A stretch of 64,000 bases of DNA from Xylographa opegraphella (taxonomy: Eukaryota), in contig JALDZX010000022.1 in NCBI GenBank assembly GCA_022813865.1, positions 1-64,000 of the forward strand, in the 5' to 3' direction. The notes below the pieces were generated by a model. It worked only from the letters and a program-made list of their open reading frames with translations. It did no database searches and had not been told where the DNA came from. The position numbers and the translations under genes are program-made. Below, piece after piece: positions 1,537 through 61,777 of the stretch (the first letter of the stretch is position 1; each line of letters opens with the position of its first letter).

Positions 1537-2810
1537 TCAGACAACCTCAGCGAGCCCCGAGCTCGAGCCAGGACGCACTCTCTTCGCGTCACGGTCAGCA
1601 CCAACAGATTCACTGGCCCGTCGTTTCGCCTTCTCACGATCATACTCTTCTTGTCGGACTGCCCGCCGCGCCTCCTTGTCTTTGCGTTCGTTTTCACGGC
1701 GGAGGGCTTTCGATTCGAACTCGTGCCAATCGCCTTGTAGATCCTTAAGTCTAGGACTTGTTAGCAAAGATGCCGGGAGTAATTGAGCATAGCTGTGGGG
1801 TAACTTACTCAACAGCCTGCACTGGCGCTGGCTCCTCCGTAGTGAAATACGGATGCTCTAGCACGTCCCCTGCCGTTGGTCGCTTCGCCGGATCGTATAA
1901 TAGCATGGCTTGCATCAGCTCAAAAGCCTGAGGTGTCAGACGGTCCCGATACTTCTCAGCGAAGACATTTGGCTTCTTTTCGGTCGGTCGTAGCAGTTCA
2001 AACCAAGCCATATCCACCAAGCCCGGCCATTCTGCCCTTGTCGGTGTCCCAAGTATATTATAGACTTTTTCGAGCTGGTTGATCTCACCTCCATCTCCCG
2101 GAAATATTGCATGCTTCGTAAATATTTCAATCATGACACAGGCTGCACTCCAGATATCCACCGCAGGTCCGTATTGTGTTTCTCCCAATAACAGTTCTGG
2201 AGGTCGGTACCATATTGTGATGACCCGATTCGTATAATCAAGCTGCCGCCGTTTAGCGTAGAAGCGCGCAAGACCGAAATCTGCTAGCTTGAGCTGACCA
2301 GTGTTGCTGACAAGGATATTAGCAGCCTTAATATCCCTATGCAGCACGCCCCGTCGGTGCAAGTAGTCGAGTCCTTCGAATAATTGCTTGGCCAAATGCT
2401 TCTTGTGCGATTGCTCAAGCTTGAAAGTTGGATGATTCAGAAGTCCAGTGAGATCGTGGGATAAGTATTCGAATACCATAAAGCAATCGTTCTTTTCCAC
2501 CATGACTTCTTGTAAGCTGACGATGTTGTCGTGCTTCAAGGATTGGAGGAGTTTGATCTCCCGGACCGCCGTGACGGGAAACCCGTCCTTTTCTCCTTCC
2601 ATCCTAATTTTCTTGAGGGCTACTAAGCTCTTCGTATATACGTGTATCGCTTTGAAAACTTTGCCATAAGTACCTGAACCGACGACCGACTCGTTACCAG
2701 GCTTTCTGTAGTATACGGAATCAGAGGCCGCAAAATCGGGCGGTAATGTAGGCCTTGGCTTCATGCGCTTCATAATCTTCTTTATTTTTTTCAGCTCTGG
2801 TGACTTTTCC

Positions 2811-2843
<33 letters not shown>

Positions 2844-5149
2844 TCCCTCTCCTTCTCCCTCTCCTTCTCCTTCTCCTTCTCTTTGTCAGGCCGTCTTTCT
2901 GTATAATGCTCACTCCTCCGATCCTCACGATGTTCTCTATCATTCCAACGTTCATCTCTGTAGCGATAATCATCCCGGTATTCACGATCTCGTCTATCAT
3001 CTCTCCGATCAATGCGAGTTTCCGTACGACGTTCAGGGCGTGATCTTGGTGCTATAGCTTCCCTCGAAGATGCAATAAATCCACCCCTGCCCTTGGTATG
3101 TTCTACTTGCGTCTCTTTTCGTGGTGGCGGAGGTTCTTTCATTTTCTGCGCAAGATCGGGGACAGGTTTTGCTGCGGGTGGAGGGGCAGCCTTAGCTTTA
3201 AAAGCGAAGCTGAATTTTGAGCCTTCTTTTGATCGTTGCGAGTTTTCAGAAGTGTGTCTCAAGGGTGGTGCCATCTGAGTTCCTTCCACAGGTTTTTCCT
3301 CCCCTGTTTCAATATCTTTAGCGCTCTGATCTTCAACTTGGAGGTCTTTCGACGGGCGGAAAGGGTTGTCGTCGTCCGGAGGTAATGGAGCAAGTCGCTC
3401 TGTGTGATGCTGCTGTTGAACCGGAGGTGGGCTCTGCGAGTGACCACTCTGCTGATGTGGGGTGCCATGGCTCTGGTCACTTTGCCCTCGGCCACGAGTG
3501 CCTCCATTAGCTGTCCATTGTAGATTTTGGAAATGTCCGCCACGGCCTCGTGGTGCCTGCACAGTGTAATTAGCAGGACCCGAGGCAGAGAACCTTCGAT
3601 CCTGCCCTTGGCCAAAATGCCCACCCCGCATTCCATTATGTCCTCCTCGATAAGAAGGACTTTGAAAACCGGGTTGCATCTGCTGAGGAGCAGGAGTGTA
3701 TGGAGAATGTTGAGGATTGGGGTAGTATTGTCCATGAGCACCATTTGGAGGATAGCTGTTTTGACGGAAAGGAGGCGAATACGCATTTATAGGTTGCCTG
3801 GGTTGATAGTCAGCAGACTGCTGACAGCTACAGAATAGACATGCTACTTACGCTGGTTGTCCATGATATTGTTGCTGCTGTTGGCCAGCCCATCCTCCTC
3901 GGCCATGGTTGTAAGGTGATGCCGATTGTGGAGATCCATGATGAGACGATGTAGGGGTCATGTATTGTGGGGAAGCAGCATACTGTTGACGAGTATCGAT
4001 ATGCGATGGGATTCGCCTTTGCGTTTGATGCATGTCACTTGCTTTCATGCCATGCATCGGGAAAGCATCCCGGATATGGGAATCTGCTGATCCATTACTA
4101 TCGTCAAAGCTAGGGATAGGTCGAGGTGGTGACAGTTGGCGGGGTTGTTCATCAAGAATCGACTGGATTGGACGTGTAGACGACTGCATCCTCCTATCGT
4201 CTGTGCTTGTTCGTTTTTGTGAAGGAGATGAGTCTCGGGTGGATTTGAAGTTTATTGGCTTCGTCACCAGGTGCTTCAGAGTGCGCAGTTTCTGCTTCTC
4301 AGATCGCTTTGATGATTTAGTCTCCTTTGCCGGATAATTAGATCTCTCTGGAGAACGGTCGCGGCGGCTAGTGTCAACAGGAGACAGTTTTCTAGACCTA
4401 CGAGGTGAATCCCGTCTGGTTTCCCGTGACCTTCGATGATGCTCTTCCCGTTGTTCGTGCCTAGATCGCGAAGGTGAAGACCTTTTCGATACCTCAGGGC
4501 GATAGTTATCCCGTAGTTCTGGTGACCTTGAGCGTCCCCGCCGAGATTGCGGCACGTAAGAATCGCGTGTGGACCGATCCTGGGATGTTGATACACGTTC
4601 GTAGGATCCTAACCGTTTATCTCTTCGGGGCGAGTGATAAGGAGAATAGGCTCTCTCCCAACGTCTGCCACCCGAGTCTACTCCTCTATCGGTATGACCT
4701 GGACTTCGAGCTCTCCTGCGCTCGGGACTGTAGTGACGTTGTCGAAGCTCGGGAGTGGGACTACGTGATCTCCTGTGGGATTTGGTGGAAGGAGACGGTT
4801 CTCGAGGTCGATTTCGCTTCGGGAGCCTCTCTCTGCTCAATTCCCTTGCGCGGTGTGACCCCTCACCGTCGTCTCTGGCTTGCGGTGAATGAGGCAAGAC
4901 CTTGTGCTCAACCCGGTGCGAGCGCTGTGTTGGCTCCCTCTGCCTCGATGTAGCCCGTCTGCTACTTTCAGCTGTAGCTCTGCCCTTGATCTTCAAACCC
5001 TCGCCAGTTTTTTCAGAGCGTCGGGCTGGAATGGGCGAAAAATCTCGTGGCACTGTCCTTTCCCTCTCTGTATGGTTGCGAGAATGCCTGTAATGGTCTT
5101 CTGCTCTCCACGGATCTCTCATCAACGGGCTCCGTCGCGACGCAGCCAT
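1537..5149 (-). CDS. CTK1: CTD kinase I catalytic subunit (CDK12/13-like); exons 5149-3852, 3797-1809, 1750-1537
   Basis: Kinase motifs GSGTYGKV, GFPVTAVREIKLL, HRDIKAAN, DFGLAR, YTNRVITIWYRPPE. RS-rich N-terminus. Two GTAAGT...YAG introns with GCTGAC/GCTAAC branch sites join three ORFs in frame. Confidence 0.93.
2806..2883 (-). repeat. Coding (GA)n/GAGAAG microsatellite encoding an E/K/R low-complexity tract in CTK1
   Basis: Visible (CT)n and CTCCTT repeats on the + strand; translates as KEKEKEKEREKERERERE. Confidence 0.9.
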
Positions 5150-17251: not shown

Positions 17252-18397
17252 CTATTCCTCGACTCTGGTCGCTTCTCGTCCCCTGTAGACCCAGAACTGC
17301 GCAAAGATTCCCAAGTCCAGTAAGAGCGTGCCAGCACTACCAATCAGCCAGCTCGCGTTGACAAGAATGTAGCGTCCGTATTCTGCACCCCACTCGCCCT
17401 GTCTGCAATCTCCGCTTGTCATGCCACTATTATGCGAGCCCACCCCTTGCGCTCTTGCGCATCCTGGCTCGTATGCTAGAATTGACATCACATACGTAAG
17501 GTTGCCGACACACGCAAAAAGGAAGAACAGCATGCTGACGCCCTCCGTTGATTTTCGGCGGTAGTTCAGAAGTAGTTGTGGAACGCGAGACCCTAAGTAG
17601 AGCACCGCACAAAGATAGCCAAAGACTTGGCCCCAAATATCAAAATATATTTCTTCTGAGGAGTTACTGTGATCAGTGCTGGTGAAGGCTGTCAGGAGTG
17701 AGCCGAAGGGACTGGTATCTTCATGACGGTGATTATGACGGTGCGATCCAGACGTGGACAGCCACCAACCAAAGATACCCGCTGTACAAACGAGAAGAAG
17801 AGCTCCCAGATTGAAGAAAGTAGTTTGCAGCGAAGACTGCGACTTCAACGTAATTGGCGGGTCGGAAGGTCGTGGTGGTGGGAGCAGTGGGGTGGCTGGT
17901 GATAGATGTGTGCCGTCCACTGCCATGAGATGGGAATTGAAAGAGGAGATCGAGCTCTTGCGTGGCCGATTAACATCCGCCGGGGTCAGCCGAGCTGAAC
18001 TATTCACTCGATGGTGGCTTGACAGTAGTGGAGATTCCTCAGTCGCTTCCTCATCGGCCTGATGCGATGGCGCCGGTTTAGTCGTAGGGTCCGAGAGAGT
18101 AAACCCACGGTAGTAGAAACATTGGCCGAGGAGAACGATATCCGCAAGCGTATAATAGACGGCCAGAATGGTCATTGTAGGTAGAACGCCCTGGAGAACG
18201 GCGCCGAGGATATTGAAGACATCACCCAGAAGCCAGACAACGATAAATATGAGAGACAAGCCATCAGCTGAACCACGCCGGAAGTTTTCGATTATTTGAG
18301 GAGAAAAAACAACTATCCAGCAGGCGATTGAGATGGAGCCTGCGATTCCTGATATTGCCTCGACGTCGAGGTGGAGTCCTTGCGAAACAGGATACAT
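17252..18397 (-). CDS. PQ-loop vacuolar cationic amino-acid transporter (Ypq1/PQLC2-like)
   Basis: Two PQ loops (FSPQIIENFRRGSADGLS; SRVPQLLLNYRRKSTEGVS) and multiple hydrophobic segments. Confidence 0.9.
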   Translation of the reverse strand: MYPVSQGLHLDVEAISGIAGSISIACWIVVFSPQIIENFRRGSADGLSLIFIVVWLLGDVFNILGAVLQGVLPTMTILAVYYTLADIVLLGQCFYYRGFTLSDPTTKPAPSHQADEEATEESPLLSSHHRVNSSARLTPADVNRPRKSSISSFNSHLMAVDGTHLSPATPLLPPPRPSDPPITLKSQSSLQTTFFNLGALLLVCTAGIFGWWLSTSGSHRHNHRHEDTSPFGSLLTAFTSTDHSNSSEEIYFDIWGQVFGYLCAVLYLGSRVPQLLLNYRRKSTEGVSMLFFLFACVGNLTYVMSILAYEPGCARAQGVGSHNSGMTSGDCRQGEWGAEYGRYILVNASWLIGSAGTLLLDLGIFAQFWVYRGREATRVEE

Positions 18398-18882
18398 GAT
18401 GCAAAGGAAGATTCACTTTTGCTTACAGCAGTGCACTTGTGAGGATGTTTATATATTGCGAAAACTGATGCCCATATATTCTAAACGTGAAACCAGAAGC
18501 AATGGCTCAGCAACTGTGAAAAAATCCGATGCCGAATGTGACGTGTGAAGATCTCGATTTTTTGTTGGCGCTAAAACGCAGATCCGGGGTAAAACCCCTG
18601 GATCTTAAATCGTCATTCAGATTAGGCAGGTCTACGCGGTCAAGCTTGTTGAAGATACTGTAAGGTACACAGTAATAAAGGTTCATCCAGTTCAAATCAC
18701 ACCCAGATCTAGCTATTGCACTGATAATGTTTTATATAGGGCATATTGTGTCATTGTCCACCACAAGAACAGTTGGGTATCATGTCGCCAAATCTGCCCC
18801 TAACGCCTGATTGAAATTTATATGTGCAGATAGCCGCATATATTCAACCATCTTCCTCGCAAATTCTCCAGCTCGCACCTTT

Positions 18883-24159: not shown

Positions 24160-26001
24160 TCAGCTGAGGTAGACACCATCCCATCCCTTGCCACCAGCTA
24201 CATTGCCCCCAACTGCTTCGCCGTGCATGATACCCTCAACATATGCGTATCCGATCAGCCAGTGGAGGACATGTGGACGATCTCGGTCGAAGAACAATTT
24301 GTTGTTCAGTCGCAGGATAAATGGTGTACGTCCACCCGCTAGGATGGCTACTTTGTCGCCTGCCAGGGTTTGAAGAGGGCCCAGGCCGATAAAGCCACTC
24401 CTTGTGCGGAAGAAAATGCGGGTTGTGACAAAGGGGAGCAGATGTTCCAAAGCCTGAGCGGTGTTCTTGTTCCGGAACTCGTCAGGAGTGTAGCCGCCAG
24501 CCTTCGTGACCCACTTATGCCACTTTTGGAAGAAGTCGGATCTTGTCGAGTCGGGATTTGTAGCGTTATGATGGTGAGACCTTTGTTTGGGGACCTTAGC
24601 TGGTCCCCAGATAGTATTCTGCGTAGCTGAAGATGAAACAGGAGATCGATGATGTGTTCCAGCGATCCGCTCCCACTCGAGGAAACAGGCGTTGAAAGCC
24701 TCGGCAAGTTTTTCTATAGACTTCACGCTCTTTAGTAAAACTTGGCTGGTGCTCAACAGCACAATCTCGTCGATATGATAGGCCCCTATAGCTAGCACGG
24801 ACCTTCCTAGAATAAGACGAGGGTTCGGTTTCATGTATCCGCATGAATTATATTCGAGTGTGCTTTTGAGAAGCGTACCATGTCCCCGCAGGTCTTTCCT
24901 CCAGTCGGGCACCCACGAAGGTAATCCAGGTCCTTGCTTCTTGAACGTGGAGTATAGAAAGATATCGAGATTTTGTTCGGATTCAATGATGGCCCGCGTG
25001 GTCTGCTGGTAAACATCGGAAACAGGCAGTGTGTAATCGGGCCGCAAGTTCATCTCCACCTCTGCCAAAGCCAAGAGACCATAGACCTTATCCCTTTCAT
25101 CCGAACACAAACCATTGGAAAAGGACCTTGTGGCCCATAAGAGGCTCCTCTTTTCGATCGCTCTCGTTCTGTTATCGATAAGCTTATACATGTTGTGTAT
25201 TGTATTCTCATGTGTTGACCCCAAGGATGCCTGCAAATCTTTTCTACTGCAGCATACGAGATGTTTCTTGAAGCTGTCAGCAAAGGAGCGGAAGACACTC
25301 CAGGGTAGCGTCGTTCTGCCGCACACAATATCCGCCTCCTTGCAGAGGGCGATCTCCTGAACGCACCATATTCTCAACCACCAAGGTCGGTTCATCAGCT
25401 TCTTCACAGCTTTGAAGCGCTTAGCAACTTGCATCTGCCAGGCGTGTCCATTCCATCTGGGCGCGAAGAAGATATCTGATTGCTTGAAATGTATATCCGT
25501 ACTTAATGCAAGCATGGTATGCAGAGCTAGATCGCTGTCATCCGATGCTTCACCCAACCAGGCCAGAACACGAGTAGCGGACCGGTATATCGATCCCATC
25601 TGTTGTACTTGGTGGGACCGCTCCTGCAAATTCGCTTGATCTATAGAGAGTGCATCAACCCAGAGCCAACGCGGATCATATCTATCCCGGAGGTATCGTA
25701 GAGCATCCCAAAGGTTGGATCCAATGCAGATCTCATGCCCGTCTAGTAAGATTCGCTGGCCGGAATGATTGGTTCCCCACGCATAGGACAATGCTTCATA
25801 CGGGGGACGGTCATCCAAAGAGATCTTGTTCAACTCGCAGACAATAGGTGCCGAACCAGTACCAGGATATAGACAGATCAGACGAATCTCGTGATCTGCT
25901 GGATCCAGTCGATGTTTCGAATAGATTGCAGAATACTCCGGGGACTTCGAGCCGGAGTATAGATTTTGAAGCTGGTTCTGAAGCCAGGTATTCGATTGCA
26001 T
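24160..26001 (-). CDS. HET-domain (HET-6-like) heterokaryon incompatibility protein
   Basis: YEALSYAWG, LWVDALSIDQ, QVQQMGSIYRSATRVLAWLG, WWLRIWCVQE, DERDKVYGLL, LPSWVPDW, LIGYAYVEGIMHGE. Confidence 0.95.
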   Translation of the reverse strand: MQSNTWLQNQLQNLYSGSKSPEYSAIYSKHRLDPADHEIRLICLYPGTGSAPIVCELNKISLDDRPPYEALSYAWGTNHSGQRILLDGHEICIGSNLWDALRYLRDRYDPRWLWVDALSIDQANLQERSHQVQQMGSIYRSATRVLAWLGEASDDSDLALHTMLALSTDIHFKQSDIFFAPRWNGHAWQMQVAKRFKAVKKLMNRPWWLRIWCVQEIALCKEADIVCGRTTLPWSVFRSFADSFKKHLVCCSRKDLQASLGSTHENTIHNMYKLIDNRTRAIEKRSLLWATRSFSNGLCSDERDKVYGLLALAEVEMNLRPDYTLPVSDVYQQTTRAIIESEQNLDIFLYSTFKKQGPGLPSWVPDWRKDLRGHGTLLKSTLEYNSCGYMKPNPRLILGRSVLAIGAYHIDEIVLLSTSQVLLKSVKSIEKLAEAFNACFLEWERIAGTHHRSPVSSSATQNTIWGPAKVPKQRSHHHNATNPDSTRSDFFQKWHKWVTKAGGYTPDEFRNKNTAQALEHLLPFVTTRIFFRTRSGFIGLGPLQTLAGDKVAILAGGRTPFILRLNNKLFFDRDRPHVLHWLIGYAYVEGIMHGEAVGGNVAGGKGWDGVYLS

Positions 26002-28398
26002 CGTGACGGGTGGTCACTGGCGGACTACTGTTTGCGTAGCTTAGCCTGGCATAGTGACCACGATCGGTAGCTGCTTCGCTTCTGGGGGATTTCCTCACAG
26101 GTCCGACAAAGGAAGCGAGTCTTACGATGGCACACTCTTGTCGCCTCCTGTAAGAATCAGGCTGGGGATATTTCCAGAGCTGAGGCTTGAGCTCAAATAG
26201 CAATGCACTCATGTGCGAGTGAGGAATAACGCAGCAGACAGAATCAAGTCGTGTAACCAGGAAGGGGAACAACAAAAGAAAATCATGTGTAAAATGTATC
26301 AAGCTTTCCTCAAGATTGGCATTGCTATCAAACGACAGCCGGCATCGTCCGAGACTATGCGTGTCTGAGGCACGGCCTGTGATCAAGAGTCATCTCATTA
26401 TCATTGATGAGGAATTCGGGGAAGCCCAAAGTCAGGGGCGCGAGGCAGACTGCTGAATCTGGGCTGAAAGTGTCTGGCGCTTGACAGTCTAGAACAGCCT
26501 CCGAGCGCTTGGCGCAAGCCATCTGGCGTCTCCGCCAAACGTGCCTCTGTATAAGTGGTGGATCGAGAGATGCTCTGGCAACCGTAATAGAGAAATACAG
26601 CTGGCCACAGCTGGCCGCAGTCGTGAGGGTGAGAAACAAGAAGTGTCCGGCTCGATCACGATGACCCAGGATCGAGAGAGGTCGTGAAAGGATTATTTGA
26701 CGTTTGGTTAGGCTCGTCCTAGTGGGGCCGACCTCCAAAACTTCGTAGTAACCGGCTAATATTGGGGACCGAGCCGCCTACCTAGCCTGGAGACTTAAGA
26801 GCCTCCTCCCCTGACACAATATTCCCGACACAATACTAATGTCCGAACTCCTATTTCTTTCGCCATCCGTGTGTCCAAATTTACGTAGTACTTTCGGATT
26901 TCAGTAGTCTCAACGTCTACTTAGTACCAAGGCACTAAGTTATCATTGCTAGCTCGAGCCTTTGAGCGACAGAGAAACCTGAAAAGCTACATAAAAGTGA
27001 CTTTTTGGGGAGTTGCATTGTATCACCGCGAGCCGAGCTACCTCGCTGACAGGTACCTTACTTTACTGCTCAAGTCGCGAAAAAAAAAATATGGATAGTT
27101 GGAAACTGATCAGCAGGAAGAGGACATGAACTGCGAGTTGTCCACTGAGCTCACCTCGCTGTTCCACATTACTGAACAGAAGTCACTGGAATTTTTTCAA
27201 ATGGAAGGGTCTCCTGTCACAGATACAGTATTGAAAGTTGAGGAGCAACTGTCAGGTCTTCAGCCGCCGAGTATACCTCGGTGCTACTCAACGACGAGGA
27301 AAAGCAATATTTCAGGCAGTTGGACACCGAAGATATGATACACCATTGGGATTCTGTAGCAAGATTTATCACCATCGGTAAGCTTTTTACGGCAGAGAAT
27401 GTTTGAACCAGCTCCGGTTTTGGAGATATCAAGTTGAAGTTGCAAGCGGATCGAGAATGAGTTATAGAACAAGGGCCTGTGCTTTAACATCTGCCCCCGT
27501 CGCAAGATGAACCAATCAAAATGCATTTCTGCAATAGCTAAGGCCAGAGCATAATGGACAGGTAGGTATCCGGAGGAGCACCTTACGTTTGAAAGATGCT
27601 CTCAATACTCCCCTATCATCAGCTTTAAGGCGGGGACTTTGGAGGCGGCCTTGATCCAACTATATTGGATGCACGCAGAGAAGCGGTGGTTCTAGTGGCA
27701 GTGCTCCGTGAGCTTGGGTGCGCAAAGTTAGTGACAGATCTGCGTTGGAGAGCGCATTGGCAAAGCGAGAAGGGTGTCTATTCAGATAACTTGGCATCTT
27801 GAGCAACTTCCAAGGGAAACGTGCAACACCCTCTAGCAAGCTTGTCGATGTTGAGTATGAAGCTTGCGATTCAGCAGGAAATGAAGGAGTAAACTTCTAG
27901 GAGAAGGGCTTGAAAAAGAACTTAAGGGGTCAGGGCCTCACGGATAAGAATCACTGGTAGTGGGTCATGGGTTTCGTAGGATGTGCGTTCAGAGGTGGCC
28001 ATTGTGACTGACTCTCTGTAAGATCCTGGAAACCAGCGGATGACCCTACCATACCCTGTAGATCTTCGGTTGGTGGAAGTTCAAGCAAGCTTCTTACATA
28101 TGGTCCTTCAACTCCAGATATGCGCTCATAAAGTGTGCCTCACGCTCGATATCTATTACATCTGCCCTCACACATACAACTCTCTTTCTGTAGAAGAAAA
28201 AACGATTCCTGCGTACGGAAGTCATCGAGACAAAATCGAGCCACAGTGGAAGTCGCGATACAATCAATGTACTGTTATGTAAGATACTACACGCTCCTTT
28301 GAACGGAGAAAGCATATCGATGGCGGAGCGGAAACCATGACCGGCATATCGGATGTTCCGACGAGGCTTGGCATTAGCTCCTAACCACTCTCGCGGTT

Positions 28399-28462: not shown

Positions 28463-28512
28463 NNNNNNNNNNNNNNNNNNNNNNNNNNNNNNNNNNNNNN
28501 NNNNNNNNNNNN
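28463..28512. other. Assembly gap (N run)
   Basis: Run of n characters. Confidence 1.
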
Positions 28513-42343: not shown

Positions 42344-43376
42344 ATGGAAGCTTGTGAGTTCTTTAGGTGCTACATACCGTCACGTTTTCATACCGCTAAC
42401 GACTGTTGCGGTATAGATAATCCGTTCGCAAAACGGGAGTCGCACTCTCAACGCTCTCTGCTTGCTTACAAACTTCTTACCGTTGCATCGTGGTTCCTCG
42501 TCCACGTAGTGGACATTCACTTTGGCTTCAATGCGCCGGTCGGGGATACATCCGGGAGGTCCATATGGGGACAGAATAAAGCTCATCCCACGCCGTTCTC
42601 ACTAAATCCACAGATTGTTGATATTTACTGGTAAGAAGCTCAGACTGGCTAAGACGTAACAAGTACACTAAGCAGAATTTAGGATTGTTATCCTAATACT
42701 TCAGATCTACTACCTCTTCATCCTGTGGTCCAGTAATGCCGACGATGTGACTCCAGTTGCAAATATCGGGTCACACTTTATCATCAACAATCTTCTACAA
42801 TTCGCATTTGTCATGATCTGGGTACATTACTTTCCGGGACACTTCTGGATTGCAGAGATCATGCTTCTCCTCAACTTCTTCAATCTATCTTCCCTCTACT
42901 TTCGTCATTCGAGAATGCCTCGTGTGATACATATTGCTGTCGTGAGCGGTCCGCTAGCGTGGAACTTTGTGGCCATCTTTTGGTGCGGTGCAGCTATGGT
43001 GAATGCGCAGAACTTGGCTGCAAGGATTTTGGCCAACATCGCGATTTGGGGCATACTCGGGTACGGACTGTTTATGCTGGCTGCGTTCAAGGACTATACC
43101 ATGGGATTCGAGCTGAGTATACTTGCCGCATGTAAGTAGCTCCTGCTCGCCTCTGGAAATTTATTGACGATTTTTGTAGCTCTCGGGGCTCATCAGTTCT
43201 TCATCAAGACTTTTGCCTTTCAGTGGATCTTCGCATTCACCATTATGTCGGTCCTCTTTCTTGCCACCCTTGCTATTGCAATTCCCGGCTTTTTTGGCAA
43301 AGAATTGAGCTTCCGGAGAGAGGGGGATATCGTAGATGCGGATCGCGAAAGACAGCCGCTCTTGAATGATGCTTGA
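42344..43376 (+). CDS. Fungal membrane protein (DUF1774-like); exons 42344-42353, 42417-42630, 42683-43131, 43180-43376
   Basis: NPFAKRESH, VGSHF-like IGSHFIINNLLQFAFVM, VVSGPLAW, QWIFAF, ERQPLL. Three GT-AG introns keep the frame. Confidence 0.8.
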
Positions 43377-43823
43377 AATAGTTGCCAAGGATGGCAAAGC
43401 GAGCGTATGGAAAGGTAGATGAGCATAGGTCAATAAAAATTGCAATGAGAGACGTATGAGGTAGAGGACGATATTGTCCATAGGGGGACGGACCTATTCT
43501 AGGAAGCATTGCAAGGAGTTTTCTCTACTTCTAGTAGCCGTAGAAGTTCCAGGAGTGATGTACTCCTATTGAGGGGTCGAGAAGACCTTGCAGAATATCA
43601 GTATCACCATTAGTACATTAGATAATGAGCAGCAGTGTTTGAAAGCACAACAACGGTTGTATTGTTCCATGTCTAGGCTGAGCCGTGCTCCTGCCCCAAC
43701 ACTTATGTTAGCCAATGTCTTCCACAATGTCCATTTCTGGTAAGTTGAAAATCGTCTTCCCCGCTCAGTTGTTTGATGCATACAGAAATATATATCTATA
43801 AGATTTTGCTCGAACAAAACCAC

Positions 43824-43973
43824 GGGGAATTAGCGCAATGGTAGCGCGTGGCTCTCCTAGTACTCGGACGAAAGTCGTAGTCAAGCCAAGGTTGAGGGTG
43901 TAGGTCTTTCCTCAACTTTGATTTTACATTCCCCAGTATACTGATTTCCTACAGTCGAGTCCCTTGTTCCTCG
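43824..43973 (+). tRNA. tRNA-Arg(CCT) with a canonical intron (43860-43882) and a spliceosomal-type intron (43900-43954)
   Basis: Acceptor stem GGGGAAT/GTTCCTC, D-arm GCGC-AATGGTA-GCGC, anticodon stem TGGCT/AGCCA with CCT at 43856-43858, T-arm GAGGG-T|TCGAGT-CCCTT, discriminator G. Mature length 72 nt. T5 run at 43987. Confidence 0.9.
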
Positions 43974-44317
43974 ATATGTTGTCTTGTTTTTGCAGTTTTT
44001 GGGACTATTTGGCCTGCGTTGTGGGCGGAACACGGACCGCCAAAAACCTCGCTCGCTTGGATCGTCAGTTGATTGATGTCTGTCTCGTCAGTTTCTTTTA
44101 GCTCTCTTCGAGTTGCACTTTCGGATCAGATTATCGTTCCAGCATGCTGCGTGTGCTTAAGAATTTCACTTTGTAATGGTCACACAGTTGATCACGGGCA
44201 TACACATTCATGGTATACGTTGAAGCTACTGGAAGACTATTGAACAATAAATTGGCGCTAGCTTTTGTCCCAGGCATATTCTTATCTCCTCAATAAACTT
44301 GAGCATACCCCCGAACG

Positions 44318-56496: not shown

Positions 56497-58569
56497 TCAA
56501 CATTTTAGTACCATCCCAACCCACCAGTCCACAAACTCTTGCAAGCCCAATTGCCTCGACGGCGTCCCTCCGATCCCAACGACCTCTTTCCCCAGGCCCT
56601 CTCTTTCCCTCCACTCCTTCTCCGCTTTCTCCCCAGCTCGCCGCACAATCTCATCCTCATTCTCCGCCCGATACAGATCGCACCTGTCGCACTCCCCACA
56701 CGTCCCGCCGGCCGGTCGGAAATGCTGGCAGAAATGGCGGTAACCCTCGCCTTCGCCATCACCGCCGCCTTCCTGGGCCTGCGCTCGAAGTATGATGTTC
56801 ATTTCGTCAGCTGGCTGTCGAATGACGTTTTGCGCGGCTGACGTCTTACGCCCGAGGCCTTGACGGCATATATAGCACATAGTGTACCCACAGACGCAAA
56901 CCATCTTGTTGCAGCCACTGTCTTTGACAAAGCCGAGGCCGCATCTGGGGCAGGTGCGTTTGAGTGCAGCGGTCCTAGCGGCTTCAACGGTCGTTCGAAG
57001 GGAGAGTGTTGCAGATTCATGGCACATGTGCGGATCCTGCCAAGGCTTGTGGCATTGAAGACACGAGGTACGAAGACAGGATGGTGAACGGCATTTGAAG
57101 CGAGAAGACAGGTAGGTCTTACGAGTTAGCTTGTCGCAGGAGTGATTAAGCAGCACCGAAGGCGCAGGGAGAGCAAACAGCCGTGCAAGAATGGCATATA
57201 GACAAAGCAATCCAAGGAAGTTGAAAGACACGGCAAGTAGAAGCAGTGTACGAACAGGCCGCGAGGTATTGAGACCCCAGCCAAGACTGTTAGAGAGATA
57301 GAGCTCATCAGCCTCGGCGTAGTTGCAAAACGGGCACCGCACGAGAGGAACTTGTGCTTTGATAAGCGCTTGATCGGCTAGACGTGACTCCAGCTTCTTC
57401 CACATCTGCACTCCCCCTTTGGCGCTATGACCGATCGCTCGGTAGGCGAGTTCGTGGGGTATGCAGCCGTTGCAAGGTATGGGATCTGTTGGAGCTAAAC
57501 AAGCTATCTGACCTCGGGTATGATCAATATTGAGACCCCATGATTGGCCGTAGAGTGCCTCTGAAACTGCATGCTGTATACAGTTGAAGCAAATTATATG
57601 GGTACCCGTCGTGCAAGTCGCCATATGCTCAAATGTCGTCTCTGAAAAGCAGCACTCGCACTCGTAAAGAGCACTGGCTTCTTCTGCCTCTTGCTCGTTG
57701 AGGAGGGTTGCAAGCTCAACATTGATGGCCTCTTGTGCTTGATGGCGCTTCTCAAGTAAAGGTTTCAAGATTGTCCTGTAAAGCTCAGAGTCAAGTTCCT
57801 TGTTTCCGCTTTCTCGTAGACTGGGGATCGGAACTGACCCCCCTTCTGCAGTTTTCGTCCAAATGAGCATAAAGTGTTTGTCTGATACTTCTTGCGCAGG
57901 CTTTCGCCACTTGAGCAAAAACGTAGAGAAGCTACTCCTCCAACTCTTGCTTGCTAGCCCTAGCAGCACCGGCCTCGAAGAAGTGTAGTAATGATTTTGC
58001 TCGGCCAAAACTCCGTCTACTGTACTTCGATTTAGGGCTTTAAACTCTTGATACAACACAGTCCTCACTGCTTGCTTGTAGTTTTCTGAGCGGAACAGTT
58101 CGTGTACAGGCACTTGTATCCTATCTCGGCCATCACCCACATCTCCTAGAAGCTGCCGGATCTCGGAGTACTGCTGCGGAGCGTCCGATCGAGTGTCCAG
58201 TCTATTGATGCGCCATCGGCTATTGACCCACTTGGCCTGGTGTTTGATCAACTGCTCCGCTACTATGTGCAGTCGGCTGTCTCCACTAAATGTACCAAGC
58301 ATCTCTCGAAAGACCTCAGGACGAACATTCGGAAAAATGTCGGCAAGCACGAGAAGGGCGTTGTTGAGGTCCGCAAGACTGGCGAATTTCCTGGGAGCCT
58401 GAGTGAAGACATCCCCGGCAGATGCCAGGACGGTCGAGAGCTCAGTACTGGCTGATCGGATGGTCTTAGGGACGGATGTACTCGAAGATGGGGAACGGAA
58501 TTGTCGTCGGCGGCTTTCAGACGGTAACTGCTCGTCTGAGCGAGAGGAGCGAAATGCGGCGAAGACCAT
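56497..58569 (-). CDS. RBR (RING-IBR-RING) E3 ubiquitin ligase with a CUE-like N-terminus (RNF216/TRIAD3-like)
   Basis: LADIFPNV (CUE-like), ECECCF...HIICFNC, RCPFCNY, SCLQCHKPW..HMC, CPRCGLGFVKDSGCNKMVCVCGYTMCYICR. First in-frame ATG at 58569. Confidence 0.9.
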   Translation of the reverse strand: MVFAAFRSSRSDEQLPSESRRRQFRSPSSSTSVPKTIRSASTELSTVLASAGDVFTQAPRKFASLADLNNALLVLADIFPNVRPEVFREMLGTFSGDSRLHIVAEQLIKHQAKWVNSRWRINRLDTRSDAPQQYSEIRQLLGDVGDGRDRIQVPVHELFRSENYKQAVRTVLYQEFKALNRSTVDGVLAEQNHYYTSSRPVLLGLASKSWRSSFSTFLLKWRKPAQEVSDKHFMLIWTKTAEGGSVPIPSLRESGNKELDSELYRTILKPLLEKRHQAQEAINVELATLLNEQEAEEASALYECECCFSETTFEHMATCTTGTHIICFNCIQHAVSEALYGQSWGLNIDHTRGQIACLAPTDPIPCNGCIPHELAYRAIGHSAKGGVQMWKKLESRLADQALIKAQVPLVRCPFCNYAEADELYLSNSLGWGLNTSRPVRTLLLLAVSFNFLGLLCLYAILARLFALPAPSVLLNHSCDKLTRKTYLSSRFKCRSPSCLRTSCLQCHKPWQDPHMCHESATLSLRTTVEAARTAALKRTCPRCGLGFVKDSGCNKMVCVCGYTMCYICRQGLGRKTSAAQNVIRQPADEMNIILRAQAQEGGGDGEGEGYRHFCQHFRPAGGTCGECDRCDLYRAENEDEIVRRAGEKAEKEWREREGLGKEVVGIGGTPSRQLGLQEFVDWWVGMVLKC

Positions 58570-58735
58570 CTTCTTAAGGATGGCTGGCGTGTGGGCCCTA
58601 CATGCTGCTGGGAGTGAAAGACAGCTCTGTCCTTTCAGTCGAGAAGAGTGTGTAGGTGCAAAGACCAAGCTATCAAACAAGCCTCAGTCAAATTTGTAAT
58701 AATATTGTAAAATAAGAACTCTCTCGCTTAAAACA

Positions 58736-58890
58736 GGCCTGATGGTACGAAAATACGAAATCGAGTTGAGTTTGTCTCTTTGCTGACAATTTGCACAGGT
58801 CTAGTGGTATGATTGTCGCTTCGGGTTCGCCTGAGTATCTTAGATACTTAGATTTGTGACAGGCCCCGGGTTCAAATCCCGGTCAGGCCC
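58736..58890 (+). tRNA. tRNA-Pro(CGG) with a spliceosomal-type intron (58745-58798) and a canonical intron (58826-58854)
   Basis: Acceptor stem GGCCTGA/TCAGGCC (perfect), TG|GTCTAGTGGTATGAT, anticodon stem GTCGC/GTGAC with CGG at 58822-58824, T-arm CCGGG-TTCAAAT-CCCGG, discriminator C. Mature length 72 nt. T5 run at 58897. Confidence 0.92.
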
Positions 58891-59398
58891 TGAATATTTT
58901 TGTCGTCATTCTCGATCGCGGTACGACGGCGGTACATGGGCACTATCGTCTTTATTCACTGTTGAGAACAATGTATGCACTCACTATAGCCAGACAATCG
59001 GTAACTTTTTGCCAACCTAAACCAAGCGACAGTCCTTCTTTGGGTAGAAATGCCTGGGCGTCTTGACGATACAGATTATTTACGATCCATCGAGCTTGTG
59101 GAAACATCAATCGATTACGCTCTATTGGTCGTTGTGAATAACATCTATTTGAACGTGCGAAATGTGCAGCGCAGAGACGTAGTTTCATACTAGATACCTA
59201 TCATAAGCTCCATACGCGACGTTAAGGAAATGGGGTATTTTAGCAATAGCAACACCAGGAAATGCCATATCAATACAGTGATGATTTCCGTAAGCCATAG
59301 TCCTTCCGTGAAGCACAATATCATCTGCGAGATTCAGCAATAGTCCTCTAAACCATGACACCGTAGCTCCAGTCTTCAATAATATCAACATGCTGTAA

Positions 59399-61339
59399 TT
59401 AAGCTCCTGAGCCCTTAAGCAGATCACTCCCAGCTTGTCGAATCCTTTTCATTTCCTTGTCGACTCGTAGCGATGCCCCGCCGACTGTCTGTTCGCGGTG
59501 GGATATCTCTTCCTCATACTTCGTTGCAATCTTCCTCTTTTCTTGTCTAGCGTCTTTGTACTTGGTCAGGATGTCTGAAAACAGCCCCAATACCATATCG
59601 CCACATTCCTCATATTTGTCCATCGTCAACGACGAAAAGAAAGAGTATAGCTTTTCTGATCGCTGTTCATCTGTGAGATCTTTCAAGTCCTTAACAAATT
59701 CAAATTGCTTGATTAGCGGCCCGGAGCGAACTTCTTCAGGAAATATTTGGACAGAACCTGTAGGGTCGAAGTCGAAACTCTCAGACCTGAGCTGATCGTA
59801 AGTTGTCTTGGACAACTGATCTTCGGTGTAGTCTAGATCAATGATACGCTTCTGACCACGTGCTGATATCACTTCAGACTGGTGAGGTAGTTGGCCGACA
59901 GTTGGGTTCTTACGAAGGGGCAGTACTTTTTCATCGACCCTCACCTCATACGGCGGCGAGTATAACAAATTCTCGTTCAAGTCTACGCCAGATACGGGAG
60001 GTTCAGGTGTTCTGCCATTGCTCCATTCCTGGGAAATATAATGGATTTTCTGAAGCTGTACCGACCGCTGTTGATCTTCTCCTGCTAAAGTTTGATCGTG
60101 TACGGTGTCATGATGATGCTGTCGGGAGGTATTAGCTGGTTGTCGAGCCACTTCCATCGAATGGTGGTGTTGCAGCGGTCTTGAAGGTCTTGCCTGGGCA
60201 GATGTGGTGTTTTTAGTCAACACTGAAACACACAGACTTTCACCTGTAGGTCTCACAGAAGTCTGACTTCGTGGGTTTGACTGTAACACATCCATACCTG
60301 AAGGGGATCGGAAGTTTGCTGCATACGCATTTCTACCTTGCTGATGTGTAATCGCCAGACTTTCGGAGCCTTTTGCCGATGGAATATGAAAAAAGCCAGG
60401 ACTGCTTGACCTACCGCGATACACTACTTCGCGGCATGGGAGGTGGCCCGGGAGATCCAAATCCTCGGCCTCATGGTCGGAAGTTGGTGGAAATCTAAGG
60501 TTTCCAAGTGAACCTCCGGGAACCTGTTGATTGGGATGAATTGTATTCTGCATTGCATCGAGTTCTCTTTCTAGTGCTTGTGCCGTAGCTGGTGGTATCA
60601 AAGCACTCATACTGGAAATATCGAGGGTGGGATCATCTTCAGCTCCCTCACCCTCCCTAGTGCTATCGGACTCGCTGTCATCTTCGTCTTCGGCGTAATC
60701 GGCGCCCTCCCATACATTATAGCGTCCATGAGATCGAGCAGCCATATAACCGGCGTGATCCATTCCAAAGGACTCAACATGCGTAGATATACCACGTACA
60801 TTGTCACTGTCAACTGGCTCCTGTGTGTTACCGCCTTCATCATAAGTCGCTACAGATTGGTTGTGATGAGTCTGGCTGTCTCCTACCTGGACGCCATCAC
60901 TTATCGTCGTGGTATCATCGAAATCGTCGCCAATATCAGTATCAAACCCATCGCGATTATTGTTCTGATGCTGCAAAGGATCTGCTTCGACTATATGAGC
61001 GACCAAGTCCTTGGAGTCCTTGGAGGGCCATGGTAGTTCGGCATCTGGATGAGATGCAACCTCTGACAAGTTCACAGGATCTGGGGCTGCAAACAAAGGC
61101 CTAGAATGCTCTAATCTCGTCGGCTGCTGCTGAATGCGAGCATTTTGGCCTGCTAGCTGCCGTCGCGAGTTGATGGCTGGAGTTAATGGGTAATTTGTCC
61201 TGTTAACCTTGTATTGACGGGATAGCCCATTCTGCGGGTTGATATTTCTGACATCGGGCAAAGCATGACGCTTTAAGGCATCATCGTGAGAAGGACTTTT
61301 TACATAATCAAACAGCGGTTTCTGTTGAGGAATAGTCAT
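59399..61339 (-). CDS. ECM11 C-terminal domain protein
   Basis: Disordered N-terminus, then LDYTEDQLSKTTYDQLRSESFDFDP...FFSSLTMDKYEECGD... and a coiled-coil C-terminus. Confidence 0.8.
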   Translation of the reverse strand: MTIPQQKPLFDYVKSPSHDDALKRHALPDVRNINPQNGLSRQYKVNRTNYPLTPAINSRRQLAGQNARIQQQPTRLEHSRPLFAAPDPVNLSEVASHPDAELPWPSKDSKDLVAHIVEADPLQHQNNNRDGFDTDIGDDFDDTTTISDGVQVGDSQTHHNQSVATYDEGGNTQEPVDSDNVRGISTHVESFGMDHAGYMAARSHGRYNVWEGADYAEDEDDSESDSTREGEGAEDDPTLDISSMSALIPPATAQALERELDAMQNTIHPNQQVPGGSLGNLRFPPTSDHEAEDLDLPGHLPCREVVYRGRSSSPGFFHIPSAKGSESLAITHQQGRNAYAANFRSPSGMDVLQSNPRSQTSVRPTGESLCVSVLTKNTTSAQARPSRPLQHHHSMEVARQPANTSRQHHHDTVHDQTLAGEDQQRSVQLQKIHYISQEWSNGRTPEPPVSGVDLNENLLYSPPYEVRVDEKVLPLRKNPTVGQLPHQSEVISARGQKRIIDLDYTEDQLSKTTYDQLRSESFDFDPTGSVQIFPEEVRSGPLIKQFEFVKDLKDLTDEQRSEKLYSFFSSLTMDKYEECGDMVLGLFSDILTKYKDARQEKRKIATKYEEEISHREQTVGGASLRVDKEMKRIRQAGSDLLKGSGA

Positions 61340-61777
61340 ATGGAAGTGCCTTAAATGGCCGATCGAACGTATTGTCTAAAAGAGACTACGAAGAGCCGAC
61401 GTACACTTCCCTATGTACCTAGCTTGATCTTCGCTCACAATCTGAAGAGGAGCTTGAGTGAATAAAACAGAAGAGTTTGGAAAGGTCCCAGGTGATGAAC
61501 AGCAATAAATAGTGACATTGATAGAATAACGAAGTCATCGGCAGCTTGACAGACAGGTTGAATACCTCCTGAGAACACTAGTATCCATAAGGCTGCGGTT
61601 CTGGGGCTAGCTCAACTCCCGCGCCTTGCTGAATGGAGACAGCTCACGCTCCACGTTTCCATAATTCTTCAAGAACTTTGACGCACACGAGAGCTTCTAC
61701 CAAACACATAACTATAAGGGTTTTTCCAAAGAGATTGCTGTCTCAATAATGACCTCTCTATAAGAAAAACTTCAGCA

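Follow-up and report, generated by a model that had tools for sequence, protein, structure and literature searches.

How is a transfer RNA (tRNA) gene to be read whose T-loop is interrupted by 55 nucleotides (nt) that begin with GT, end with AG and have the look of a short spliceosomal intron? The question is raised by a locus of the lichen fungus Xylographa opegraphella, located within positions 1–64,000 of the forward strand of contig JALDZX010000022.1 (assembly GCA_022813865.1). This whole stretch of 64,000 nt was analysed and is referred to as the window. Judged from its sequence, the nuclear tRNA-Arg(CCU) locus probably holds two kinds of introns, namely a 23-nt ordinary tRNA intron at the canonical site between positions 37 and 38 (37/38) and, in the T-loop, a U2-type GT-AG intron of 55 nt. 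Another tRNA gene of the window, the unrelated tRNA-Pro(CGG) at 58736–58890 on the plus strand, holds an insert of the same kind. The explanation that fits best, held with slightly better than even confidence, is that both are live tRNA genes that would need the spliceosome for their maturation, as the U6 gene of Schizosaccharomyces pombe does.

In its genomic form the tRNA-Arg gene is invisible to standard searches. ARAGORN calls no tRNA in the intact window, regardless of whether the intron option is on or off, and Rfam yields no match in the whole intact window at the gathering score and none for positions 43500–44300 at E ≤ 10. The initial annotation of this DNA, made from the letters alone, had quoted an insert with its flanks as GAGGGT / GTAGGT...ACTGATTTCCTACAG / TCGAGTCCCTT, and exactly these letters are found, with the insert at 43900–43954 (55 nt). 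Its in-silico excision leads ARAGORN to call tRNA-Arg(cct) with a retained 23-nt intron at 37/38, and this call together with the cloverleaf fold bears out the proposed identity of the gene as a tRNA-Arg(CCU) with an insert between T54 and T55. When both the insert and the 37/38 intron are removed, a product of 72 nt is left, the minimum-free-energy fold of which is a full cloverleaf (−25.0 kcal/mol). The loop bases U8, G18 G19, U33, and T54 to A58 are present in the ARAGORN drawing, and all stems are paired without mismatches, with three G-U pairs among the 21 stem pairs.

All parts of the gene lie on the plus strand. Exon 1 (43824–43859, positions 1–37, according to ARAGORN after excision and to the cloverleaf fold) comprises the 5' strand of the acceptor stem, the D arm and the 5' strand of the anticodon stem with the anticodon CCT at 43856–43858; a match to the A-box pattern identifies an intact A-box-like TAGCGCAATGG in its D arm at 43831–43841. 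The ordinary 23-nt intron follows at 43860–43882 as placed by ARAGORN. Exon 2 (43883–43899, positions 38–54) contributes the 3' strand of the anticodon stem, the variable loop, the 5' strand of the T-stem and T54. It is followed by the T-loop insert of spliceosomal type and by exon 3 (43955–43973, positions 55–73), which provides the rest of the T-loop, the 3' strands of the T-stem and of the acceptor stem, and the discriminator G. A 20-nt exact stretch of the 5' half of this tRNA has no match in the bacterial and archaeal genome collection.

The boundaries of the insert had been described as unable to slide. For the standard 7-nt loop this holds: the T preceding the insert differs from its last G and its first G differs from the T that follows, so that a single excision restores TTCGAGT. 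It does not hold for ARAGORN, which tolerates other excisions as well. Among 651 local excisions (starts 43885–43915, lengths 45–65), 13 resulted in a call, 11 of them tRNA-Arg and two with an undetermined anticodon, and the alternative excisions that give calls lead to non-standard loops or variable regions. The fit to a standard T-loop supports the boundaries 43900 and 43954, yet it is no proof of a unique excision.

Within these boundaries the insert starts with the donor GTAGGT (43900–43905), contains the branch motif CTGAT (43941–43945) with the branch A at 43944, 10 nt before the insert end, and closes with the acceptor CAG (43952–43954). The three elements fit the U2-type GT-AG patterns GTRNG(T), CTRAY and YAG, respectively. 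The GC content of the insert is 0.38 versus 0.57 in the tRNA exons. The frequency of such signals at fixed ends was determined for all segments of 54 or 55 nt that the two strands of the window contain. GT...AG ends occur in 970 of these 255,782 segments, GTRNG...YAG in 51, and the combination with CTRAY 6–25 nt from the end in six (2.3e-5), both tRNA inserts being among the six. This agrees with the earlier statement that a random insertion would rarely supply donor, branch site and acceptor in the correct register. With free boundaries the signal set is not enriched in the window, as 84 occurrences were observed versus 102.9 ± 16.4 in first-order Markov simulations of the window; a looser pattern with free boundaries was observed 36 times versus 30.3 ± 5.7 in simulated sequence. 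The significance of the signals therefore rests on the tRNA, which fixes the boundaries independently.

Introns in a protein-coding gene of the same window served as a yardstick for size and signals. The CTD-kinase open reading frame (ORF) at 1805–3847 shows about 90% identity over 98% of its length to proteins of three Xylographa species, and its further named matches are other lichen-forming Lecanoromycetes. For the taxonomic placement of the window, an ORF with a HET domain, the mark of a filamentous ascomycete, points the same way. Intron 3798–3851 (minus strand) has 54 nt with GTAAGT..CTGAC..CAG and the branch A 12 nt before its end. It coincides with a 54-nt gap (3797–3850) in the tblastn alignment with the CTD-kinase homologue of Xylographa pallens and holds the sole in-frame stop of this alignment. 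Intron 1751–1808 (minus strand), with 58 nt, GTAAGT..CTAAC..TAG and a branch distance of 10 nt, sits at the break between two pieces of the same alignment. The tRNA inserts with 55 nt (Arg) and 54 nt (Pro) compare with 54 and 58 nt for these homology-supported introns, and putative ORF-bridging introns that fit the pattern, which are candidates from sequence, span 49–70 nt. When the two tRNA inserts and the two local introns are compared, the four sequences can be aligned only at their splice signals. The spliceosomal nature proposed for the T-loop insert is thus supported by signals in register and by the size of local spliceosomal introns, and splicing itself would be the prediction that follows from them.

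An unsupervised harvest of local introns by ORF bridging returned 4058 candidates and was abandoned as too permissive; it was replaced by the pattern list and the one homologue alignment. A further 54-nt alignment gap at 2804–2857 (minus strand) turned out to be an in-frame indel in a GA-rich low-complexity coding stretch and no intron. This GA-rich stretch of the CTD-kinase gene is missing from the homologue of X. pallens.

The second interrupted gene was recovered by an excise-and-rescan procedure, in which every GT..AG segment of 40–90 nt was removed on both strands and ARAGORN was run on the flanks. The 24,357 excisions of this type in the whole window resulted in three tRNA calls at two loci, the Arg locus and the tRNA-Pro locus. 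The third call names a "tRNA-Ser" and is an artefact that arises on the DNA of the tRNA-Pro locus. In a wider control every segment of 30–100 nt was removed regardless of its ends (2,265,255 + 2,260,710 = 4,525,965 excisions), and calls were then obtained at eight loci, of which only Arg and Pro survive ARAGORN thresholds of 105% and 110%. The six marginal loci at 3242, 5976, 24876, 45580, 56869 and 62239 fail at 105%, lack GT..AG ends and were taken as false positives. They mark the noise level of the excise-and-rescan method.

These marginal calls after arbitrary excision lend some colour to the view that chance alone produced the two loci, by a random insertion or by a false positive of ARAGORN, and that they are neither intron nor tRNA; so does the splice pattern with free boundaries, for which the window shows no excess over simulated sequence. 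Against this view, the six loci differ from Arg and Pro in threshold behaviour and in their ends, the low fixed-boundary signal rate would have to be met twice independently, and the spliced Arg product folds into a cloverleaf as its minimum-free-energy structure. A chance origin looks untenable. The remaining picture is that both recognisable tRNA genes in 64 kb are interrupted outside the anticodon loop by an insert of spliceosome type and that no ordinary tRNA gene was found there.

The tRNA-Pro gene has the same build with the insert at another position. Exon 1 (58736–58744, positions 1–9, located by excision and ARAGORN) is followed by a 54-nt insert of spliceosomal type at 58745–58798, which separates position 9 from position 10 where the D arm begins. 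Removal of this insert leads to an ARAGORN call of tRNA-Pro(cgg) with a 29-nt anticodon-loop intron. The insert has the donor GTACGA, CTGAC at 58783–58787 with the branch A at 58786, 12 nt before the insert end, and the acceptor CAG; its GC content is 0.39, and its boundary can slide by 1 nt owing to a G on both sides. Exon 2 (58799–58825, positions 10–37) bears the anticodon CGG at 58822–58824, the anticodon-loop intron at 37/38 occupies 58826–58854 with a placement that is ambiguous by 1–2 nt (flanking T bases), and exon 3 (58855–58890, positions 38–73) includes an intact B box, GGTTCAAATCC, at 58869–58879. All these parts are located on the plus strand. For 58700–58950 Rfam gives weak tRNA-like matches to the T-arm, the tRNA-like end of transfer-messenger RNA with E=0.015 and mascRNA with E=0.2.

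The two inserts have no similarity to each other or to the rest of the window, the best other match being 12–13 nt long with E of at least 0.14. Neither has a second copy within the window that would indicate an introner-type repeat, and the exons of both tRNAs have no further copy there. Junction duplication is absent at the Arg insert, and the Pro junctions share G|GT. A 19-nt pattern in which the acceptor is joined to exon 2 of tRNA-Pro has two matches in contigs of bacterial metagenome-assembled genomes, neither of them a tRNA.

Insertions outside the anticodon loop that are cut out by the tRNA splicing endonuclease are known, and the inserts might be of this kind, with GT and AG as incidental ends. 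According to the accessible text of one survey (PMC4090602), excised introns in the D or T arm occur in archaea, in Cyanidioschyzon merolae, where they depend on a bulge-helix-bulge motif, and in nucleomorphs of cryptophytes and chlorarachniophytes, where they have 3–24 nt. The Arg and Pro inserts resemble them in their location in the D or T arm, in the frequent company of a 37/38 intron and in hiding the gene from standard tRNA finders (PMC4090602, as far as accessible). They differ from them in length (54–55 nt versus 3–24 nt in nucleomorphs), in lacking a bulge-helix-bulge motif and in being defined by GT, branch site and AG. The canonical eukaryotic 37/38 intron is also present in both genes, with 23 and 29 nt; the GT-AG inserts are instead found outside the anticodon loop.

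The endonuclease route was examined in the bulge-helix-bulge register, that is with flanking helices, bulges of 3 nt each and a central helix of 4 bp, in which the last exon bases are paired to intron positions −3 to −6. The Arg insert pairs at 3/4 positions of the central helix, which would be in favour of endonuclease removal, at 1/4 of the outer helix and at 3/4 of the inner helix; the respective values for the Pro insert are 2/4, 2/4 and 1/4. Both anticodon-loop introns, by comparison, have a complete outer (anticodon-stem) helix in the endonuclease register (4/4), and in each of them position 32 is paired with position −3 of the intron. The register fails for both GT-AG inserts, no such motif appears in the minimum-free-energy folds of the precursors, and the 5' junction of the Arg insert lies in a 10-nt hairpin loop of these folds instead of a 3-nt bulge, so that a bulge-helix-bulge intron was rejected. 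The eukaryotic tRNA endonuclease finds its cleavage sites by measuring from the folded body of the tRNA and therefore could not reach the GT-AG insert. Endonuclease removal would furthermore leave unexplained why donor, branch site and acceptor occur at the spacing of local introns in two unrelated inserts, and it is highly unlikely.

Other removal routes fit no better. An intron of the IRE1/HAC1 type was rejected, judged from sequence alone, as its 5' cleavage site would have to lie behind the U of a 10-nt loop, and the consensus is a G in a 7-nt loop. Group I and group II introns were rejected on the basis of length, 54–55 nt being too short, and of the missing Rfam match.

The Arg precursor has a conspicuous local fold around the donor. 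The 12 bases preceding T54 (43887–43898) can pair with positions 43909–43920 of the insert, resulting in a helix of 12 bp with two G-U pairs that presents the donor GTAGGT in a 10-nt hairpin loop. When the interior of the insert was shuffled, 24 of 2000 shuffles reached a helix of this length. In addition, the ends of the Arg insert form a 5-nt inverted repeat (GTAGG...CCTAC). Helix and inverted repeat could be due to chance, could be a trace of the origin of the insert or could be a fold that presents the splice sites.

Spliceosomal introns outside genes transcribed by RNA polymerase II (Pol II) have been described for fungi. As reported in the available part of one study (PMC5855946), the intron of the sole U6 gene of S. 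pombe, which is transcribed by RNA polymerase III (Pol III), is removed by the spliceosome, other fungal U6 genes contain up to four introns with canonical signals that are otherwise unconserved, and U1, U2, U5 and ribosomal RNA (rRNA) genes are listed as further hosts of spliceosomal introns. Lichen fungi have spliceosomal introns in their ribosomal DNA (rDNA), and a 57-bp intron of this kind from Cladonia grayi is spliced from RNA polymerase I (Pol I) transcripts in yeast; the accessible text on these introns does not mention a tRNA case (PMC8527467). Full-text searches of the literature, with most subscription journals lying outside them, returned no description of spliceosomal introns in tRNA genes.

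The likeness to the U6 introns is close in several respects. In the available text of the study, these are likewise short introns with canonical signals in a small non-coding gene of Pol III type, interrupt a highly conserved part of the RNA and are unrelated in sequence when they occur in different genes or positions (PMC5855946). In contrast to U6, the host is a tRNA and no component of the spliceosome, and removal, which was shown for U6 of S. pombe, is predicted here. The active-site proximity argument for reverse splicing is inapplicable because a tRNA is not part of the spliceosome. A further difference concerns the promoter: the intron of S. pombe U6 contains a B-box match, as stated in the title of Frendewey et al. 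1990, whereas the Arg intron splits the B box. The lichen rDNA introns come from the same class, Lecanoromycetes, are of similar length (57 bp in C. grayi versus 54/55 nt) and share canonical signals and a host gene that is not transcribed by Pol II, but they reside in rRNA transcribed by Pol I and not in a tRNA, presumably transcribed by Pol III (PMC8527467 in its accessible part; Bhattacharya et al. 2000 as cited there). As in both of these cases, the Arg and Pro inserts have canonical signals and are otherwise unconserved; the interrupted parts are the T-loop in Arg and the beginning of the D arm in Pro.

Whether the two genes could be transcribed depends on their promoters and terminators. 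A TATA-like element, TATAAGA, at 43797–43803 on the plus strand, 27–21 nt upstream of the start of tRNA-Arg, is a candidate upstream Pol III promoter element, and ATAAGA is found at the equivalent site upstream of tRNA-Pro (58712–58717). The upstream regions of both genes (43779–43823 and 58691–58735, plus strand) match at 22/40 positions with an offset of 2, and they share ATAAGA about 25 nt upstream and AAAAC directly before position 1. A match of 22/40 was reached by 54/5000 shuffles and by 6/4994 random 45-mers of the window, and as only two sequences are compared, the likeness is only suggestive. This shared organisation may represent the upstream promoter layout of Pol III genes in the host fungus. 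Downstream, tRNA-Arg is followed by two T5 runs on the plus strand, 43987–43991 and 43996–44000, which are 14 and 23 nt past its end, and tRNA-Pro by one at 58897–58901 (plus strand), 7 nt past its end; all three are Pol III terminator-like. The inventory of T runs shows no T5 inside either tRNA gene. Live Pol III genes would be expected to show such terminator-like runs, the lack of an internal T5 and similar upstream regions, and likewise the fully paired stems of Arg.

In neither gene are the A box and the B box both contiguous. The tRNA-Pro gene has an intact B box, the sole match to GGTTCRANNCC in the window, and an A box that is cut by the insert after position 9. An A-box-like 11-mer with one mismatch is recreated at the 3' junction of the Pro insert and, if it is used, might start transcription inside the intron. 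The tRNA-Arg gene has an intact A box and a B box that is split by the insert; what remains of it is at best an 11-mer at the 3' junction with three mismatches to GGTTCRANNCC.

This damage is the starting point of the principal alternative, according to which the two loci are young pseudogenes, each a redundant or dispensable tRNA gene that was killed by a spliceosomal-type intron or by DNA derived from such an intron, through the broken B box in Arg and the displaced A box in Pro, and that has not yet decayed; neither splicing nor a tRNA product would then occur. Several observations are in favour of it, most of which at the same time weigh against live, spliceosome-dependent genes. The split of the B box with its poor remnant should badly weaken binding of TFIIIC to a type-2 Pol III promoter. 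The Arg insert contains a TTTT run at 43922–43925, a signal that stops Pol III in some eukaryotes. The tRNAs of the two interrupted genes, with the anticodons CCT and CGG, are C34 isoacceptors, which usually have few gene copies. Their codons can be read by a U34 tRNA, and in yeast C34 isoacceptors are dispensable or absent; inactivation of both genes might therefore be tolerated. The C34 status of the two genes could reflect such tolerance, or the two cases could coincide by chance. The three G-U pairs in the Arg stems could be early transitions. In addition, a eukaryotic tRNA gene with an insertion in its D or T arm is usually regarded as a pseudogene, as far as the survey is accessible (PMC4090602). 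Two further points weigh on the same side of the balance, irrespective of the pseudogene alternative: at an ARAGORN threshold of 115% none of the eight loci of the wider control is left, the Arg and Pro calls being lost too, and tRNA splicing is carried out by endonuclease and ligase, with neither spliceosome nor GT-AG signals, as described in the available parts of a 2026 review (PMC13149111) and of a further review (PMC10275265). The broken B box and the C34 isoacceptors are among the strongest of these objections.

The pseudogene alternative meets difficulties of its own. Both tRNA genes in 64 kb are of this kind and no ordinary one is present, which is unlikely for rare wrecks. The Arg stems are free of mismatches and the invariant loop bases are kept, both genes retain terminators and similar upstream regions, and the splice signals are intact in both inserts. 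The initial annotation had read the intact stems as an argument against decay; the stems are intact, and what they exclude is old decay only. In view of these points young pseudogenes are rather unlikely, with a weight that exceeds that of any other alternative considered here. For functional genes the strongest argument is that both tRNA genes of a short window are of this kind and otherwise intact.

A broken B box would be irrelevant if the tRNAs came from Pol II transcripts, which are normal substrates of the spliceosome. In such a scenario the spliceosome would remove the intron during transcription, and RNase P and RNase Z would cut the tRNA from a longer spliced Pol II RNA, as is known for tRNA-like RNAs derived from long non-coding RNAs. 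A transcript reading through from the gene upstream, the leader at the 5' end of the gene downstream or a non-coding RNA could serve as the host. The setting of tRNA-Arg would allow this: it starts 448 nt past the stop of an ORF ending at 43376, and its end lies 345 nt before the ATG (44318) of a histidinol-phosphatase-like ORF on the plus strand. A Pol II host transcript is conceivable for tRNA-Arg because both neighbours are on the plus strand. The tRNA-Pro gene, however, runs antisense to its neighbours on either side, the ORFs 56497–58683 and 59399–61375 on the minus strand, and no sense host gene is visible, which argues for independent transcription units. The T5 runs directly downstream and the TATA-like element about 25 nt upstream of both genes likewise correspond to an independent Pol III layout. 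A Pol II origin is thus improbable, more clearly so than young pseudogenes.

For live genes that depend on the spliceosome, we infer a sequence of steps from the DNA, including transcription and the polymerase, splicing, the order of events and the function of the product. The tRNA-Arg gene would be transcribed as its own unit, most likely by Pol III, via the intact A box and the TATA-like element, and transcription would stop at the T5 runs. The spliceosome would then excise the T-loop intron as a lariat before any other step. The folded body of the tRNA is what RNase P, RNase Z and the tRNA splicing endonuclease recognise. As long as the insert is retained, neither the T arm and the elbow (Arg) nor the D arm (Pro) can form, and the spliceosome would therefore have to act first. 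Subsequently, RNase P, RNase Z, the tRNA splicing endonuclease and then the ligase would complete the tRNA, with the ordinary intron being lost as usual.

Such introns most likely arose when an already excised intron entered an abundant RNA or the gene of that RNA, for example by reverse splicing that was followed by reverse transcription and recombination. Introns of U6 small nuclear RNA have been proposed to originate in this way, too. A more far-reaching interpretation is that spliceosomal introns have colonised nuclear tRNA genes generally in this lineage of lichen fungi, in the D arm and in the T-loop and on top of anticodon-loop introns. This extension to the lineage is tentative and is put forward with distinctly less confidence than the interpretation of the two genes themselves.

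If the two genes are live, a tRNA gene that needs the spliceosome would break the textbook rule that tRNA introns are removed by endonuclease and ligase and never by the spliceosome, and the range of non-Pol II substrates of the spliceosome would extend from U6 and lichen rRNA to tRNA. They would also constitute a natural test of how new introns enter structured RNAs. If, beyond that, the whole lineage is affected, part of its tRNA pool would depend on the spliceosome acting first on Pol III transcripts, which would be a new route of eukaryotic tRNA maturation beside the tRNA endonuclease pathway. Dead genes would still be a record of a recent insertion of intron-like DNA into tRNA genes and thereby relevant to intron gain. 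Since standard finders miss the interrupted genes, with no call in the window, tRNA counts for lichen fungi, and perhaps for other fungi, may be too low. The excise-and-rescan method could be applied genome-wide.

Apart from the two tRNA loci, the window contains a scaffold gap in the form of a run of 50 N at 28463–28512. HET, ECM11 and PQ-loop domains are encoded by the ORFs 24160–26013, 59399–61375 and 17252–18412, respectively, all on the minus strand, and these are ordinary fungal genes.

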